Below are positions 1,331 to 6,442 of a stretch of DNA of 32,000 nt, one piece after another. Source of the DNA: Candidatus Saccharimonadota bacterium (lineage in GTDB: Bacteria > Patescibacteriota > Saccharimonadia > Saccharimonadales > Saccharimonadaceae); contig CP075337.1 in NCBI GenBank assembly GCA_025349965.1, positions 630,001 to 662,000 on the forward strand, written 5' to 3'. The notes under the pieces were generated by a model that did no database searches, was not told the DNA's origin, and saw only the letters and a list, made by a program, of their open reading frames with translations. Made by a program: the position numbers and the translations under genes. The first letter of the stretch is position 1. Each line of letters begins with the position of its first letter.

Positions 1331-4249
1331 TTACGCCTTTTGAAGGGTGACGGTGAGTTCCATGCCTTCAATGGTCGCGTCGATACTGTATTCGTATTCG
1401 TTATCCGCGAGACCACCCTCTACAAGTGTCTCTGCAGCAATCACGTCAGCATGCTCGGCAATTGCCTGCTTGAGCGTATCATCTTCCGTCTTGAGACTCA
1501 GTACAATGCGGTCGTCCACGTTAAGTCCAGCGTTCTTACGCGCAGATTGGACGTGACGAATCACTTCGCGGCTCAAGCCTTCACGGTGAAGTTCTGGGGT
1601 GATGTTTTTATCGAGAGTCACCGCTTCAATTTCACCGGCTTCATGTGTTACTGTCTTTACATTCACTTCTTCGGCAATAATAGTTTCATAGAACGCATCA
1701 AGTTTTTCACCACTATACGTCAGGGTTGAAAGTGGCTGGCGAATCTTGATCTGTCCCTGTTCGTCATCACGCTTCATACGGAGACCAAGCCCCTGCTCAA
1801 TCACTTCACGAGTGTGCGCCATGCGGTCAATCACAAGGTCGTTGACGTGCCCAACTTCTGGCCAATCAGTCAGGTGAACACTTTCGTTGTTCGTCATCTT
1901 GCGGTACAGTTCTTCGGCCATAAATGGCGCGAATGGCGCAAGCGCTTGACTGACACGAACCAGTACATAATGAAGAGTGCGGTAGGCAGCCTGCTTGTCA
2001 CCATCATCGTCTGACTTCCAGAAACGGCGACGCGAACGACGAACATACCAGTTTGAAGCATCGTCGAGGAATGGCAAGATTGGCTTCACAGCGCTTGGAA
2101 TGTCATATTCGTCCATACGTGCCTCAACCTCTTCAAGAAGTTGATGTACGCGGCTAATAATCCATTGATCAAGCGGGTTCTGAACAAGCCCCTCCACAGT
2201 GAGTGGATCAATTGGAAGTCCAGCAGCATCACGCATCTCATCGGTGAATTCCCAGCCATCAACTTCGGCATACATTGTAAAGAAGTCGTACATATTCCAG
2301 ACCATACTGAGCTTACGGGCAACATCACCAACGTCTTTGTCCTGAAGACTAAAGTCTTCACCGGCAAGGACTGGGGAGCTCAGCATGAGCATGCGAAGCG
2401 AGTCAGCACTAAATTTATCCATGAGCTCATTTGGATCAGTAAAGTTACCGAGGCTCTTGCTCATTTTACGGCCATCATTACCGGCTAATGTTCCGGTAAC
2501 AATTACATGTTTAAATGGCGCCTTACCAAAGAGGCCAACATTAATTGCTTGAAGGTAATAGAACCACGCCCTCACCTGCCCTACATACTCGGCAATGAAG
2601 TCGCCAGGGAAATTGGCTTCAAACTTTTCTTTGTTTTCAAATGGATAGTGGAACTGCGCAAATGGCATACTGCCAGATTCAAACCAACCATCAATCACCT
2701 TATCAATACGGCTATACGTGATGCCGTCCTTTTCAAAGGTAATGTCATCAACCCATGGGCGGTGGTAATCTTCCAGTTCAACGCCAGAAAGTTCTTTGAG
2801 TTCAGCGTAGCTACCAACAACAATTTGGTGCTTTTTGCCATCAGCATCATGACCTTCCCATATCGGCATGGCTGTTGCCCAGAAACGGTCACGGCTCAAG
2901 TTCCAGTCTGGTGCAGCTTCAATATTCTTTTCAAAACGGCCGTGCTTGATGTGGCTCGGGAACCATTCAATACCTTCGGTGTTTTGCGCCAACATATCTT
3001 CTTTTTGGCCAGCAATATCCATAAACCAGCTTGGGTGCGCACGGTACATAAGGCGCGTGCCACAGCGGTGACAGTGTGGGTACGGGTGACGAATGTAATC
3101 AATCTTCCATACTACGCCACGTTCATGGAGTGTCTTGGCAATTGTCTTGTTAATCTCCCAAACATTCTCGCCCTTCCATTCAGATTCAGAATAAAGGCCG
3201 TTTTCGTCAATGACGTGCACAACCGGGATGCCCTTTTCTATAGCAAGAATAAAGTCTTCTTCACCATAGGCAGGCGCGAGGTGAACAATACCTGTGCCAT
3301 CTTCAGCACTCACGTAGTCAGCCGCCCACACCTTGTGCGCGCCTTCGCCGCGGTCTTCAAAGAGCGGTTCATAGCTGAGGCCAACAAGTTCCTCACCCTT
3401 GAGTGTACGCACTACTTCATGTTCAAGTGGTTGATGCTTTTCGTCAGTCAGCACCTTCTGAACAAGATCTTTGGCCAAGATAAATTGTTCATCACCTACC
3501 TTTACTTCAACGTAGTCTAACTCTTTATTCACGGCTGTAGCGGTATTCGCAGGAAGCGTCCACGGGGTGGTGGTCCAAGCAAGCAGTGTTGAGCCGTTTT
3601 CAAGATGGAATTTTACATAGACGCTTGGGTCAGTGACGTCCTGATAAGCACCGGCGTCCATAGTAACTTCTGCCTTAGAAAGTGGCGTTGCATCACGAGT
3701 ACAGTACATAAGGACGCGCTCGCCTTCATAAATCTTACCCTTGTTGTAGAGCTCCTTAAATGCCCACCAAATAGACTCCATGTACTCTTTGTCCATAGTC
3801 TTGTAGGCGCCCTTGAAGTCAACCCAGCGGCCAATGCGGTCAATAGTATCTTCCCAGAGTGAACCGGTCTGTACCATGTTGTCGCGCGCGGTAGTAATGT
3901 ATTCCTCAAGACTAATCTTTGTGCCAATGTCACGACGGTCTTTTACACCGAGCTTCTTTTCAGTGAAGACTTCAGCTGGAAGCCCGTGACAATCCCAACC
4001 CCAGACACGTTCAACACGCTTGCCTTTCATGGTTTGATAGCGCGGTACGGCATCTTTTACGATTGAGCTAAGAAGTGTTCCGTGGTGTGGCACGCCGGTA
4101 ATGAACGGAGGGCCGTCATAGAAGACATAGGCATTGTCAGCTGGGCGAAATTCGACCGACTTTTCAAAGGTCTTGTTTTCTTTCCAGTACTTTACGATGT
4201 CTTTTTCATACTCAAGCGCGCGGCGGCGAGTGTTGGATTGAAATTTCAT
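1331..4249 (-). CDS. ileS: Isoleucyl-tRNA synthetase, probably type 2
   Basis: Class I aaRS signatures: GVPHHGTL (HIGH-type) and KMSKS (RKMSKSLGN), plus WDCHGLP and HYPFENKEKFE. Start placed at ATG 4249 with AGGAG 8 nt upstream and an ATGA overlap with the upstream gene. Confidence 0.95.
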   Translation of the reverse strand: MKFQSNTRRRALEYEKDIVKYWKENKTFEKSVEFRPADNAYVFYDGPPFITGVPHHGTLLSSIVKDAVPRYQTMKGKRVERVWGWDCHGLPAEVFTEKKLGVKDRRDIGTKISLEEYITTARDNMVQTGSLWEDTIDRIGRWVDFKGAYKTMDKEYMESIWWAFKELYNKGKIYEGERVLMYCTRDATPLSKAEVTMDAGAYQDVTDPSVYVKFHLENGSTLLAWTTTPWTLPANTATAVNKELDYVEVKVGDEQFILAKDLVQKVLTDEKHQPLEHEVVRTLKGEELVGLSYEPLFEDRGEGAHKVWAADYVSAEDGTGIVHLAPAYGEEDFILAIEKGIPVVHVIDENGLYSESEWKGENVWEINKTIAKTLHERGVVWKIDYIRHPYPHCHRCGTRLMYRAHPSWFMDIAGQKEDMLAQNTEGIEWFPSHIKHGRFEKNIEAAPDWNLSRDRFWATAMPIWEGHDADGKKHQIVVGSYAELKELSGVELEDYHRPWVDDITFEKDGITYSRIDKVIDGWFESGSMPFAQFHYPFENKEKFEANFPGDFIAEYVGQVRAWFYYLQAINVGLFGKAPFKHVIVTGTLAGNDGRKMSKSLGNFTDPNELMDKFSADSLRMLMLSSPVLAGEDFSLQDKDVGDVARKLSMVWNMYDFFTMYAEVDGWEFTDEMRDAAGLPIDPLTVEGLVQNPLDQWIISRVHQLLEEVEARMDEYDIPSAVKPILPFLDDASNWYVRRSRRRFWKSDDDGDKQAAYRTLHYVLVRVSQALAPFAPFMAEELYRKMTNNESVHLTDWPEVGHVNDLVIDRMAHTREVIEQGLGLRMKRDDEQGQIKIRQPLSTLTYSGEKLDAFYETIIAEEVNVKTVTHEAGEIEAVTLDKNITPELHREGLSREVIRHVQSARKNAGLNVDDRIVLSLKTEDDTLKQAIAEHADVIAAETLVEGGLADNEYEYSIDATIEGMELTVTLQKA

Positions 4250-4626
4250 ACTGATGGCTCCTGTGCTTTCGTTAATAATACTGCTTCCCATTCAGGTTGG
4301 CGGAATCCTATGAGGACGGTTTCTTTGGTTTCAATAATTGGACGTTTGATAAGTTTCGGGTTTTCAGACAGAATTTTTATTTGCTCATCTTCACTAAGAG
4401 TTGGGAGGCGATTTTTCATGTCGAACTCTCTGTAGAGGATGCCGCTAGTGTTGAAGAGCCTTGAGAGTGGTAGATTGGACTTTTGCCACAAGGTGGTGAT
4501 TTCCGTAGCGCCGAGTGGCTGGTCTGTGTAATCACGTGGTGTAAAACCTATATCATTATCACGCAAAAACTTCTCCGCCTTCTTGCAGGTTGAACACTTT
4601 TTGTAGCAGATAAAGTTTATTGCCAT
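4246..4626 (-). CDS. ArsC/Spx-family protein (N-terminal CxxC)
   Basis: MAINFICYKKCSTCKKAEKFL... and ...LIKRPII match the ArsC/Spx/YffB fold pattern. ATG 4626 is preceded by AAAGAGGT. The longer ORF-track start (4722) would run through the leader structure. Confidence 0.8.
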   Translation of the reverse strand: MAINFICYKKCSTCKKAEKFLRDNDIGFTPRDYTDQPLGATEITTLWQKSNLPLSRLFNTSGILYREFDMKNRLPTLSEDEQIKILSENPKLIKRPIIETKETVLIGFRQPEWEAVLLTKAQEPSV

Positions 4627-4838
4627 GAATACCTCTTTAAAATAATAAAAACCTTTCGTCCACCGGAGCCCATTTTCATGGGTGGTACCATCCGGTTTCC
4701 AAAAGGTTTTAACTTTCAGCACTTCATTATCGCTCTGACGTGGCGTTCACGTTGGGTTCTAGTCTCCGAAGATTTCTTCCCAAAACTCGCGGGTGATGGC
4801 CGCTTTCACACCAAGCATGGCGCTACGCTTCTATACAT
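4627..4838 (-). promoter_or_regulatory. T-box-like riboswitch leader (candidate Ile specifier) upstream of the ArsC-like/ileS operon
   Basis: Antiterminator-like fold: ACCGGA(4691-4696)/UCCGGU(4662-4667), a 7-nt bulge UGGUACC (4684-4690), and CCCAU-GAAA-AUGGG. The helix is extended by CCUUUUG/CGAAAGG and followed by a U-run. Upstream, a short hairpin (4802-4816) sits on a loop reading C-AUC-A-CC (AUC at 4795-4797). Confidence 0.6.
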
Positions 4839-4847
4839 AGTATACCA
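4839..4847 (-). promoter_or_regulatory. Extended -10 promoter TGgTATACT for the T-box-like leader
   Basis: The minus strand reads atatGGTATACTatg just downstream of the pilin stop codon. Confidence 0.5.
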
Positions 4848-4858
4848 TATGACACAGA

Positions 4859-5545
4859 CTACTCATAGGACTCGAGCATGATAACGCACCTGGACCACCC
4901 TTGGCTCGCCTGTCCGTCGTATTGTGCATTCGGAATGCCACCGCACGAGGGGTCCGTCCCGGCGAGCGCGAATGTAATAAAGTAGCGGGTTCCTGGTTTA
5001 CCAAGAGCATCCTTAGGTGCATTAGGAGGATAGACCCAGCCCATCCTGTTCGTGTAACTTGGGACGCGATTATCTGGCACAGTTGAGTACACGGGATTGG
5101 CAATGGAAAGTCCGCTAAATTGCAAGAACGAAGCAGAAGACGGACCAGGAAGCGTGCCGTACTTGCCAAGCGTATCGCTCAGCCAGCTTGCTTCAAACCG
5201 GACAGAACCATTATTATTCGTACACGCCCTCCTTGGCTGACGCAGTGTTGGGGATGCATTTGTAGAAGCTCCCGAATCTTGATATAGCGGAAAATCTTTT
5301 CCAAGACAGTAGTCATAAAAATCCGCCTGACCCTCACGTGGCCACGAGCCATTTTCAGACCTATACATAGTAAATAACTTCAAAGCATTGCTTGTTGTCG
5401 TGGTGACGGCAGAGTTTTTAGCACGGATAGTAATACCGTTATAGCTAGCGACCGTAATGGCGGCCAGTATGGCAATCGCAACGACAACTACGAGAAGCTC
5501 TACGATAGTAAAGCCAGCAGTGCGGATGATTCTTGTGCGCTTCAT
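4859..5545 (-). CDS. Type IV pilin-like protein (prepilin N-terminal motif)
   Basis: MKRTRIIRTAG|FTIVELLVVVVAIAILAAITVASYNG shows G-F cleavage/methylation motif, Glu5 and a hydrophobic helix. Confidence 0.85.
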   Translation of the reverse strand: MKRTRIIRTAGFTIVELLVVVVAIAILAAITVASYNGITIRAKNSAVTTTTSNALKLFTMYRSENGSWPREGQADFYDYCLGKDFPLYQDSGASTNASPTLRQPRRACTNNNGSVRFEASWLSDTLGKYGTLPGPSSASFLQFSGLSIANPVYSTVPDNRVPSYTNRMGWVYPPNAPKDALGKPGTRYFITFALAGTDPSCGGIPNAQYDGQASQGWSRCVIMLESYE

Positions 5546-5581: not shown

Positions 5582-6442
5582 TTAGGCAAGGAATTGTTTA
5601 ATAATTGCGGCGTGGAGATGCACGTCATTCGCAAAAGCATGCTCCAACCCCTCGAGACGGACTCTTTCAATGCGCCCATGTGCACTGAGCGCGTCAAGCT
5701 TCTTTTGCATATACGCGTCATCCCCTATCTCACTTGCCGTGCCCCACGCTACCATTGTTTTCATCTGTGGTTGCCGTGTCATCACTCGCTTGAGACGTTT
5801 CAAGACAGCAATGCGTGACAGCGCCACTGCAATGGTTACATTTATAGGCCGCAAGAGCGCTTTATTATGATTGCGGTTCAAGGCTGCATCGCCTCGTGCT
5901 TTATGATACGTTTCGAGATTTGTGGAATTCACGTATTTCCCAAGGGGGCCATAGGTTTTTGAAAAGTCGCGCATTAGTTTTATAAGGTTTCGTGGGCGCG
6001 CAACTGGGTCGACAAGCAGTAGACCCTTCAAGCTCCCCCGTTCCATATACTCACTTTCAGTCGTTGCCTTCAGTGCGCCATAGGAATAGCCGATTTGGTA
6101 CCATTCAGAGATACCGTTTTGCTTTAAATAGTCGAGCTCTGGGGCAATAATTGGACGCATATCTTTAAAGAGCGCTACTCGCAATCGCTTTAAAAACGAG
6201 AGTTCCTGCGCCTTGAAATAATACCTATCCCCACTTGGGTTACCAAAGCCAATCACGCGATACTCAGGGTTCGTTCCGGCAATCGTTGCCAGTTGATAGA
6301 GCTGATTCGGGTCGAGTGGTGTCTCCATTGAAGTATGAACAACTATAACCCCCTTTTCTGGAGTGTGTTTTGCCGCAATATCCATAACGGGGACACCATC
6401 ACCGTTTTCAAGTGTATGAAGCTTCACTTCTCCAATGCCCAT
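5582..6442 (-). CDS. Alpha/beta-hydrolase-fold protein
   Basis: Nucleophile elbow GYSYG; C-terminal ...LEHAFANDVH is a possible His of a catalytic triad; length is typical. No SD or -10 box near ATG 6442 (see findings). Confidence 0.65.
   Translation of the reverse strand: MGIGEVKLHTLENGDGVPVMDIAAKHTPEKGVIVVHTSMETPLDPNQLYQLATIAGTNPEYRVIGFGNPSGDRYYFKAQELSFLKRLRVALFKDMRPIIAPELDYLKQNGISEWYQIGYSYGALKATTESEYMERGSLKGLLLVDPVARPRNLIKLMRDFSKTYGPLGKYVNSTNLETYHKARGDAALNRNHNKALLRPINVTIAVALSRIAVLKRLKRVMTRQPQMKTMVAWGTASEIGDDAYMQKKLDALSAHGRIERVRLEGLEHAFANDVHLHAAIIKQFLA

Follow-up and report, generated by a model that had tools for sequence, protein, structure and literature searches.

A probable tRNA-Ile-responsive T-box ahead of ileS in Saccharibacteria, with a predicted terminator built around the acceptor-binding element

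Introduction

We describe here a non-coding leader from Candidatus Saccharimonadota bacterium (contig CP075337.1, positions 630,001 to 662,000). This stretch of 32,000 nucleotides is called the window below, and positions are counted from its first letter. The leader lies on the minus strand, in a gap of 232 nt between the stop codon of a pilin-like gene (4859-4861) and the ATG (4626-4624) of an ArsC/Spx-like gene, which is followed by ileS, the gene for isoleucyl-tRNA synthetase. Our conclusion is that the leader is probably a T-box responsive to tRNA-Ile, which would control transcription of the ArsC/Spx-like-ileS operon by attenuation, through the exchange of two helices: Stem III and a helix here called P0. 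A first-pass annotation, made from the sequence alone, had already proposed an isoleucine-specific T-box ahead of these two genes. The proposal is borne out by covariation in a family of 105 leaders, by the almost constant presence of ileS behind them, and by alignment with T99, the decoding domain of the ileS T-box of Nocardia farcinica (sequence taken from the supplementary table of PMC10651847). Comparison of the related sequences establishes both alternative helices, the U-tract that follows P0, the specifier, the association with ileS, and homology to a T-box of solved structure.

A family of orthologous leaders

The first related leaders were found through relatives of the ArsC-like protein, which led to contigs carrying the same leader. 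The operons behind it are ArsC-ileS (L081, L082), DUF1706-ArsC-ileS (L083-85, L099-102) and, in L095, Tag-lipase-ArsC-DUF218-x-ileS; in L086/L087 the order begins with ArsC-Tag. A DNA pattern derived from these protein-found leaders, TTTTSGAAAYYRGATGGTAMC, was used to scan metagenomes and returned at least 120 stretches. After parsing, the two routes together gave a family sample of at least 105 distinct leaders, reduced to 86 by a 90% redundancy filter. Two sub-samples were also used: 74 discriminator regions in a plain MAFFT alignment, and 54 leaders for the RNAalifold analysis of Stems I and II. Over their N-terminal 300 residues, the IleS proteins behind the leaders are 59–92% identical to IleS of the window, and the family members are therefore fairly close relatives.

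The association with ileS is strict. The gene is found 3' of the leader and on the same strand in 81 of the 105 cases, and in 81 of the 82 with enough sequence to judge. It lies within 100 nt of the leader in 45 of the 105, at 100–1000 nt, after one small gene, in 32, and at more than 1 kb in four; in 23 the downstream sequence is too short to tell. The single leader with 2.9 kb of downstream sequence and no ileS is that of L086/L087 (2240-2520 and downstream), where a T-box with an AUC specifier stands ahead of ArsC-like, Tag, GNAT, inositol-phosphatase and PemK genes.

The first-pass annotation had suggested that orthologous leaders be examined for conservation and covariation, and both are clearly present. 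Over the whole structure, 93.7% of the cells are standard pairs, compared with 77.0% in shuffled alignments (a level as high as that observed is attained by none of 500 shuffles) and no more than 56% with the strands slid; the covariation score is 0.56, against 0.26 in the shuffles (again 0 of 500). A covariance model, R1, was built from the orthologues to cover the discriminator and the terminator (83 positions). It has a single match in the window, at 4724-4643 (79.3 bits, E ~7e-19), and finds exactly one forward match, of 55–95 bits, in each of the 86 sources, window included. Unrelated loci totalling 460 kb contain no match to it with E < 0.4. No second T-box of the same type was found in 527 kb of family loci, the weaker matches being reverse-strand echoes of the same hairpin.

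The expression platform: a predicted terminator

RNAalifold analysis of the 74 discriminator regions gives one long hairpin, composed of the 13 pairs of P0, a small internal loop, six pairs of A1, a bulge of 7 nt and six pairs of A2. Compensatory changes occur in 18 of the 25 pairs of this hairpin, and in nine of the 13 pairs of P0 itself, where individual pairs are found for example as AU (32 leaders) or UA (28), as CG (33) or AU (26), and as UA (30) or CG (29). The helix varies between 10 and 14 base pairs (bp) across the family. Its 5' strand, AAAACCUUUUG, combines the 3' portion of the Stem III loop with the Stem III 3' strand, while its 3' strand, CGAAAGGUUUU, begins 3–4 nt after the 3' strand of A1 (A1'). 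The P0 duplex has a mean energy of −14.9 kcal/mol for cognate strands, as against −8.7 kcal/mol for non-cognate ones, and P0 is present in the minimum free energy (MFE) fold of 83 of the 86 full leaders. The complete terminator hairpin averages −31.2 kcal/mol in the family and reaches −26.2 kcal/mol in the window.

Directly after P0 there is a run of 4–7 U residues in all 86 leaders, and all but one of them have 7–8 U in the first 9 nt. In the window, an extension helix CCUUUUG/CGAAAGG is followed by the U-tract UUUUUAUUAUUUU, which stands right after and partly inside the base of P0. The first-pass annotation had offered two readings of this region, as a terminator or as a sequestrator of the Shine-Dalgarno (SD) sequence, and it is the terminator that the family supports. 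Since P0 covaries and is then followed by a U-run in every leader, the terminator consists of the intact A1/A2 element extended at its base. With both a stable stem and a U-tract, this arrangement is a predicted intrinsic terminator. A consensus terminator scan did not detect it, because that scan allows only loops of 3–8 nt.

Nucleotides 4700-4705 are common to Stem III and P0, and these two helices are therefore mutually exclusive. Two mutually exclusive helices, each kept by compensatory change, are the hallmark expected of a switch, which suggests that the leader is one.

The discriminator

The part of the leader that would read the tRNA 3' end contains, in order, a purine string, Stem III, and the A1/A2 element with its bulge. 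The purine string is nearly invariant, with the form AAG(Y/A)G among the 74 leaders. Stem III has eight pairs, in which 83–100% of cells are paired in the anchored register compared with 54–70% when slid. Pair 2 occurs as UG (50), CG (17) or GC (15), changing together with its partner; pair 7 is GC (44) or AU (22), and pair 8 is AU (39) or GC (27). On its own the stem averages −5.5 kcal/mol in the family; in the window it is weak, at −2.0 kcal/mol.

A1 is formed by ACCGGA (4696-4691) and UCCGGU (4667-4662), and comprises 6 bp including A4696-U4662. The bulge UGGUACC occupies 4690-4684 and has the family form UGGUA(C/A)C. A2 is ACCCAU-GAAA-AUGGGC. Both helices covary: pair 40/75, for example, is CG in 39 leaders and UA in 35, and pair 52/70 is CG in 41 and UA in 33. 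The UGGU of the bulge would pair with the ACCA 3' end of the tRNA. The A2 closing pair is G.U in 48 of the 74 leaders, A-U or U-A in 21, and A.C in three including the window; the A.C pair is that of the window, L081 and L082, with G.U accounting for 65% of the family. For A1, A2 and the bulge between them, as for Stem II and Stem IIA, the first-pass annotation was correct, down to the coordinates.

The purine string RRRxG with Stem III and AA, the UGGN-ACC bulge, A1/A2, and Stem II with IIA/B are T-box defining elements (PMC7583486), and the positions of all of them in the window are listed in Table 1.

Table 1. Features of the leader and of the genes that follow it, in order of transcription
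Feature	Positions	Strand	Basis
Extended −10 element TGgTATACT	4839-4847	−	Sequence; −10 box in 85/86 family leaders
5' leader segment UAGAAGCGU (family consensus ..RCGUU)	4825-4833	−	Conserved in family; aligns with T99 GACGAU
Insertion hairpin CGCCA-UGCU-UGGUG, 5' of Stem I, lineage-specific	4809-4822	−	Absent from L081 and L082
Ultrashort Stem I GCGG-CCAUCAC-CCGC (4 bp, 7-nt apical loop)	4789-4803	−	Covariation and T99 alignment
Stem II: proximal UUGGG (4783-4779)/CCCAA (4756-4752), distal UCU-UCGG-AGA	4752-4783	−	Covariation and T99 alignment
Stem IIA CGUG-AACGC-CACG (4751-4739) and candidate IIB pseudoknot	4731-4751	−	Aligns with T99 CGGG-UGAGC-CCCG...GCUC
Purine string AAGUG, RRRxG motif before Stem III	4720-4724	−	AAG(Y/A)G nearly invariant in 74 leaders
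Stem III CUGAAAG-UUAAAAC-CUUUUGG, predicted ON-state helix	4699-4719	−	Register and covariation; AA linker at 4698-4697
P0 5' strand AAAACCUUUUG	4700-4710	−	Sequence
Discriminator core: A1, T-box bulge, A2	4662-4696	−	A1 and A2 covary
P0 3' strand CGAAAGGUUUU, pairing with 4710-4700	4648-4658	−	Covariation, energies, MFE folds
U-tract UUUUUAUUAUUUU	4639-4651	−	U-run in 86/86 leaders
SD sequence AAAGAGGU (4638-4631) and ATG (4626-4624) of ArsC/Spx-like gene	4624-4638	−	Sequence; without conserved sequestering pairing
First cistron, ArsC/Spx-MgsR family, 126 aa, CSTC motif	4246-4626	−	PF03960 66 bits; TIGR01617 86.7 bits
ileS (type 2 isoleucyl-tRNA synthetase), the conserved regulated gene	1331-4249	−	TIGR00392 786 bits

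The decoding half

Stem I is reduced to a hairpin of four pairs. The specifier AUC (4797-4795) occupies positions 3–5 of its apical loop and is followed by A4794; every genuine family leader has AUC, a codon for isoleucine, within loops of the form YYAUCAN. All four pairs covary, pair 2 being UA in 46 and CG in 38 of the 86 leaders. The stem is flanked in the window by UGAAA and GAG, and in the family by UGA and GAA or GAG, which fits the tandem G.A pairs of a kink-turn (K-turn). The segment UAGAAGCGU further 5' probably forms the 5' side of this K-turn region at the base of Stem I, a role assigned by analogy with the structure in PMC10651847. The long Stem I with an AG bulge and a distal-loop platform, on which the tRNA elbow docks in other T-boxes, is absent.

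The first-pass annotation had identified the right codon, but placed it in an internal loop beneath a hairpin with the stem GCUU/AAGC, whereas it lies in the apical loop of GCGG/CCGC (4803-4789). The alternative Stem I fold, GCUU-GGUGUGA-AAGC, is rejected: it is built from the insertion that is absent in L081 and L082, and other members have unrelated small hairpins at the position of this insertion.

Stem II has internal loops of the S-turn type, AAGAAA and CUAGAA in the window, and the loop sequences GGAAGAA and UAGA are conserved across the family. Compensatory changes are found in all eight Stem II pairs, and in 12 of 12 when Stem I is included (RNAalifold, 54 leaders). For Stem IIA, a candidate IIB pseudoknot joins CGC in its loop (4745-4743) to GCG in the linker (4733-4731). 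This loop-linker pairing has an energy of −2.5 kcal/mol for cognate and −1.1 kcal/mol for non-cognate combinations, which lends weak support to the pseudoknot. Two members, L108 (8328-8389) and L200 (8282-8343), have no Stem II, so that their decoding module is 62 nt long instead of about 90; they still have Stem I, Stem IIA/B and the entire discriminator and terminator.

T99 aligns colinearly with the window leader and with five other family members. The two share the same 4-bp hairpin with an identical CCAUCAC loop, the GGAAGAA and AGUAGA elements of the Stem II S-turn, AGUAGAAC, and the arrangement CGnn...nnCG-UCA(C/G)AGC. In T99-type RNAs, Stem I contains a K-turn, with the specifier in its apical loop, and docks on the Stem II S-turn; IIA/B acts as a hub (PMC10651847). 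Because of this colinearity the decoding half can be assigned to the actinobacterial short-Stem-I type, as the first-pass annotation had surmised from the truncated Stem I.

Comparison with known T-boxes

The closest known relatives are the translational, class II ileS T-boxes of Actinobacteria, which have a short or ultrashort Stem I and are represented by N. farcinica T99 and the Mycobacterium tuberculosis ileS element (PMC1262725, PMC10651847, PMC11297988, PMC12647780). The present leaders resemble them in regulating ileS, in the AUC specifier, in the lack of a tRNA-elbow platform, and in having a Stem I made of a K-turn and a short hairpin, followed by Stem II and then IIA/B in the same order and with the same spacing. 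They differ firstly in their host phylum, Saccharibacteria (part of the Patescibacteria and the Candidate Phyla Radiation, CPR). Secondly, the bulge here reads UGGU, whereas in PMC12647780 the tRNA-Ile of M. tuberculosis has GCCA at its 3' end. Thirdly, the U-tract terminator stands in place of the SD sequestrator of the actinobacterial T-boxes, whose expression platform is known to us from text descriptions. The sequestrator of M. tuberculosis arises when a large rearrangement breaks the antisequestrator (PMC12647780), while in the leaders described here A1/A2 would stay intact and Stem III would be the part exchanged.

With the Firmicutes T-boxes (such as Bacillus subtilis tyrS and glyQS, and the family RF00230), the leaders share a specifier codon, the UGGN-ACC bulge between A1 and A2, the G.U pair that closes A2 in most members but not in the window, predicted termination at a U-tract, and a terminator as the predicted default fold. 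They lack the long Stem I, the AG bulge and the distal-loop platform. In addition, the terminator makes no use of the A1 and A2 3' strands, and it coexists with the so-called antiterminator, the competing ON element being Stem III. As an intrinsic terminator the hairpin is conventional in being stable, in ending at a U-run, and in having an A-rich 5' flank that pairs with the first U residues. Its unusual feature is the "loop", which is a structured tRNA-acceptor-binding element of about 35–70 nt with a 7-nt bulge.

At gathering thresholds, no Rfam family matched anywhere in the window. The first-pass annotation had proposed a search with the T-box model RF00230 and named the lack of a significant hit as a point against the T-box, and a hit above the gathering score is indeed lacking; a relaxed local search of 4550-4920 nevertheless gives an end-to-end match at 4847-4661 (29.6 bits, E = 5.9e-5). 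The T-box sequence, Stem III, Stem II and the F-box region are all retained in the alignment, but 39 out of 65 hidden positions in Stem I are deleted. A relaxed Rfam search of six orthologous loci together (32 kb) found no T-box. The family is thus effectively invisible to Rfam-based annotation.

A proposed mechanism

On the basis of these observations, we hypothesise that the decoding module captures tRNA-Ile during transcription by pairing of the anticodon GAU with AUC. The K-turn-like base would carry the AUC hairpin, backed by the S-turn of Stem II and the Stem IIA/B pseudoknot. In the ON state, the ACCA end of uncharged tRNA-Ile would pair with UGGU, and the purine string, Stem III, A1 and A2 would close around the tRNA. 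The 3' strand of P0 would then stay single-stranded, because the 3' strand of Stem III is unavailable to it, and the polymerase would read through into the ArsC-like gene and ileS. The distance from the end of the A1/A2 hairpin to the U-tract is 13–16 nt in most leaders and 14 nt in the window. A hairpin 13–16 nt before a U-tract is too far upstream for intrinsic termination, and read-through would be expected for this reason.

In the OFF state, with charged tRNA or with none, the newly made P0 3' strand would invade the weak Stem III from the end next to A1. The long hairpin (about −26 kcal/mol here) would form beside the U-tract, and transcription would stop at approximately 4639-4648. Single-molecule work on the M. 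tuberculosis element has found that a mimic of charged tRNA still binds, and that Stem III and the linker undock (PMC12647780). The proposed exchange of Stem III and P0 agrees with these data.

Several points weigh against this reading. Transcriptional T-boxes are said to need the elbow platform of a long Stem I for fast tRNA capture (PMC7583486), and the window leader has none. The steps of the mechanism, namely tRNA binding, termination and switching, are all deduced from sequence comparison. The match to RF00230 falls well below the gathering score of 93, and the six orthologous loci, searched together, gave no match to that model. Stem III consists mostly of A-U and U.G pairs and has only −2.0 kcal/mol alone in the window; its covariation is confined to three positions, and the slid controls are themselves already 54–70% paired. 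The pattern used for the metagenome scan fixes UUUU(G/C)GAAAYYRGAUGGUA(C/A)C, and only seven distinct leaders are independent of it. For the bulge, part of A1 and most of the Stem III 3' strand, the lack of variation is thus in part a product of this pattern; the seven protein-found leaders show the same features, bulge included.

Two further points concern the tRNA. The A2 closing pair in the window is A.C (A4683.C4668) and not the G.U that serves as a steric sensor of the aminoacyl group; a protonated A+.C wobble would be isosteric with G.U. ARAGORN, which was sanity-checked on E. coli tRNA-Ile, detected tRNA genes neither in the window nor in the 142 related loci (825 kb, without masked stretches). 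This is plausible, as all these loci sample the same ileS neighbourhood, and it is why this lineage's tRNA-Ile is here assumed to have a GAU anticodon and A73.

Alternative explanations

The alternative that survives best, and which we still regard as unlikely, is that P0 is a permanent stem that replaces Stem III under A1. tRNA-Ile would then control termination or RNA decay with no exchange of Stem III and P0: a bound tRNA may sterically hinder completion of the hairpin, or the leader may be a leaky constitutive attenuator. P0 is far more stable than Stem III (means of −14.9 and −5.5 kcal/mol, respectively) and prevails in the MFE folds; the A1/A2 element is still formed within the terminator, so that the tRNA 3' end could in principle dock there; and the Stem III covariation is limited to three positions. 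A permanent P0 does not, however, explain why the RRRxG...AA purine string, which Stem III puts in place (PMC7583486), is conserved, or why pair 2 of Stem III alternates, in exact step with its partner, between U.G or C-G on the one hand and G-C on the other. Moreover, mutually exclusive helices that both covary are typical of switches.

It is quite improbable, in our view, that the leader is a translational T-box, in which the tRNA frees the SD sequence from a sequestrator, for example ACCUUUU paired with AAAGAGGU, and the U-rich stretch is incidental. The decoding domain belongs to the actinobacterial type, and every described member of that type acts on translation (PMC7583486). ACCUUUU of the window (4707-4701) can make seven pairs with AAGAGGU; that it can pair with the SD sequence had been pointed out in the first-pass annotation. 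The window allows this pairing, but the family has not conserved it. An SD region pairs with its own leader no more strongly than with the leader of another member: the energies for cognate and non-cognate combinations are −10.1 and −9.6 kcal/mol with the whole leader, −7.0 and −6.5 kcal/mol with the P0 5' strand, and −5.2 and −5.0 kcal/mol with the A1' strand, and no conserved SD sequestrator is found among them. In L084 the equivalent pairing has only 5 bp. The anti-SD-like strand would also be occupied in both of the states proposed above, by Stem III or by P0, and in all 86 leaders a U-run comes directly after a covarying helix, which is what marks an intrinsic terminator.

A canonical T-box, in which the 3' strands of A2 and A1 pair with downstream sequence into a terminator or sequestrator and so destroy the antiterminator, is the arrangement of all T-boxes in the reviews consulted (PMC7583486, PMC7778990). 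Here it is very improbable. Cognate-specific complementarity between the A2'/A1' strand and the 60 nt after it is absent (−7.0 compared with −6.5 kcal/mol), in contrast to the pairing of this strand with the 5' half of its own T-box (−13.7 cognate, −9.0 kcal/mol non-cognate), and on this ground there is neither a canonical terminator nor a canonical sequestrator. There is also no room for a second hairpin, because the P0 3' strand starts 3–4 nt after A1' and is followed by the U-run.

Finally, the idea that there is no T-box at all, but a chance resemblance, an unrelated structured leader or the terminator of the upstream pilin gene, has the sub-threshold Rfam score in its favour and can practically be dismissed: it is contradicted by the comparative evidence, by the strict link to ileS and to an AUC loop, by the homology to a crystallised T-box, and by the promoter that lies after the preceding gene and ahead of the leader in 85 of the 86 cases. 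The attenuating T-box with exchange of Stem III and P0 is retained as the best explanation.

Promoter and genes of the operon

The extended −10 element, the CCUUUUG/CGAAAGG extension, the SD sequence and the ATGA overlap listed in the first-pass annotation are all present in the sequence. Transcription would be expected to start about 6–8 nt 3' of TGgTATACT (4839-4847). A −10 hexamer, matching at five or more of six positions, is found no more than 90 nt 5' of Stem I in 85 of the 86 family leaders; a control scan of 87-nt stretches of coding sequence from the same loci gave 17 matches. The position of this promoter, between the preceding gene and the leader, suggests that the leader begins an independent transcription unit.

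The ATGA overlap, at 4249-4246, joins the stop codon of the ArsC-like gene to the start codon of ileS. The closest solved structures to IleS of the window are those of the type 2 enzymes 8c8u and 1ile. It scores 686 bits with IleRS2 8c8u and 630 with Thermus thermophilus 1ile, compared with 285 for the type 1 enzyme of Staphylococcus aureus, 1ffy. Type 2 IleS is the eukaryote-like, MupA/MupB-like form of the enzyme.

The first-pass annotation had drawn attention to the ArsC/Spx-like first cistron as an unusual target of regulation. Seen across the family, it is one of many small and variable genes, and is in first position in only five of the 105 leaders. The genes between leader and ileS are diverse: GNAT acetyltransferases are the commonest (for example L109, L111 and L123), and others encode DUF1706 (L107), NYN (L104), DUF5680 (L177), cupin (L156), RidA (L158), Tag (L095) and ArsC/Spx-like proteins. 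Given this diversity, the ArsC/Spx-like cistron is best described, from the sequence comparison, as a lineage-specific passenger and not the regulatory target of the family. Close relatives of the ArsC-like protein (P0026, P0029 and P0039, 44–48% identical) are found in unrelated contexts without ileS, and one locus of each (L097, L088 and L093, respectively) has no match to R1. A contig profile search with the ArsC-like alignment gave Firmicutes ArsC-family genes, with no Saccharibacteria locus among the matches listed.

About one third of the leaders have a single small, highly variable gene between the T-box and ileS. NCBIfam contains a family, NF040702, described as "ileS with N-acetyltransferase domain", in which the two are fused. 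The slot between T-box and ileS may be a hot spot for insertion, or the genes in it may be useful under isoleucine starvation.

Upstream of the leader in the window, two open reading frames (ORFs) on the minus strand, at 4859-5545 and 5582-6442, encode proteins with N-termini like those of type IV pilins (RTAGFTIVELLVVV here). Neither has a Pfam match at E <= 0.001; a weak N_methyl match is seen at the homologous positions in L082 (733-2270). Several other lineages have a different context, the order ftsZ - nrdR - small ORF - T-box leader being kept in L081, L083-85, L095 and L099-102.

Novelty and implications

Full-text searches found no paper that links a T-box with Saccharibacteria, Patescibacteria or the CPR. 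In the T-box database TBDB, the class II model was run on Actinobacteria and on those class I hits whose Stem I is truncated (PMC7778990), and the present leaders would not be class I hits. Both the Rfam threshold and a TBDB class II search restricted to Actinobacteria (PMC7778990) would miss such leaders. In the review literature, an ultrashort Stem I is tied to translational control and a long Stem I to transcriptional control (PMC7583486). From these searches, the scope of TBDB and the Stem I rule, we take the leaders to be T-boxes from a new phylum, their expression platform being arranged in a new way, and this large family is apparently undescribed. An earlier description of a similar platform may exist in the primary papers on actinobacterial T-boxes, and this too has to be set against our reading.

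A wider proposal, to which we give even chances, is that Saccharibacteria carry a third class of T-box, in which a minimal decoding module free of the elbow platform is combined with a terminator that encloses an intact acceptor-binding element, and in which Stem III exchanges with the base of the terminator, in place of the usual exchange of antiterminator and terminator. Such leaders would challenge the rule on Stem I length, with more than 100 natural examples in which a textbook terminator accompanies an ultrashort Stem I. The switching logic would also be different, with the site for the tRNA 3' end pre-formed in both states and Stem III as the part that is toggled. Stem III docking has been reported as the charging-sensitive step in single-molecule work (PMC12647780), and the leader offers a compact natural system of about 190 nt in which this idea (PMC12647780) can be tested. 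For genome annotation, model R1 can be used to mark ileS regulation in Saccharibacteria.

Saccharibacteria live as epibionts of Actinobacteria, their usual hosts, and a T-box-ileS cassette could conceivably have passed from one group to the other. The IleRS of M. tuberculosis is also of type 2. In design the leaders are nearly identical to the actinobacterial ileS T-boxes; this, together with the type 2 IleRS that both groups have, would speak for a shared origin or for the cassette having been transferred. To our knowledge, almost nothing is known of RNA-based regulation in the CPR. If the reading given here is true, the T-box mechanism reaches into this radiation.

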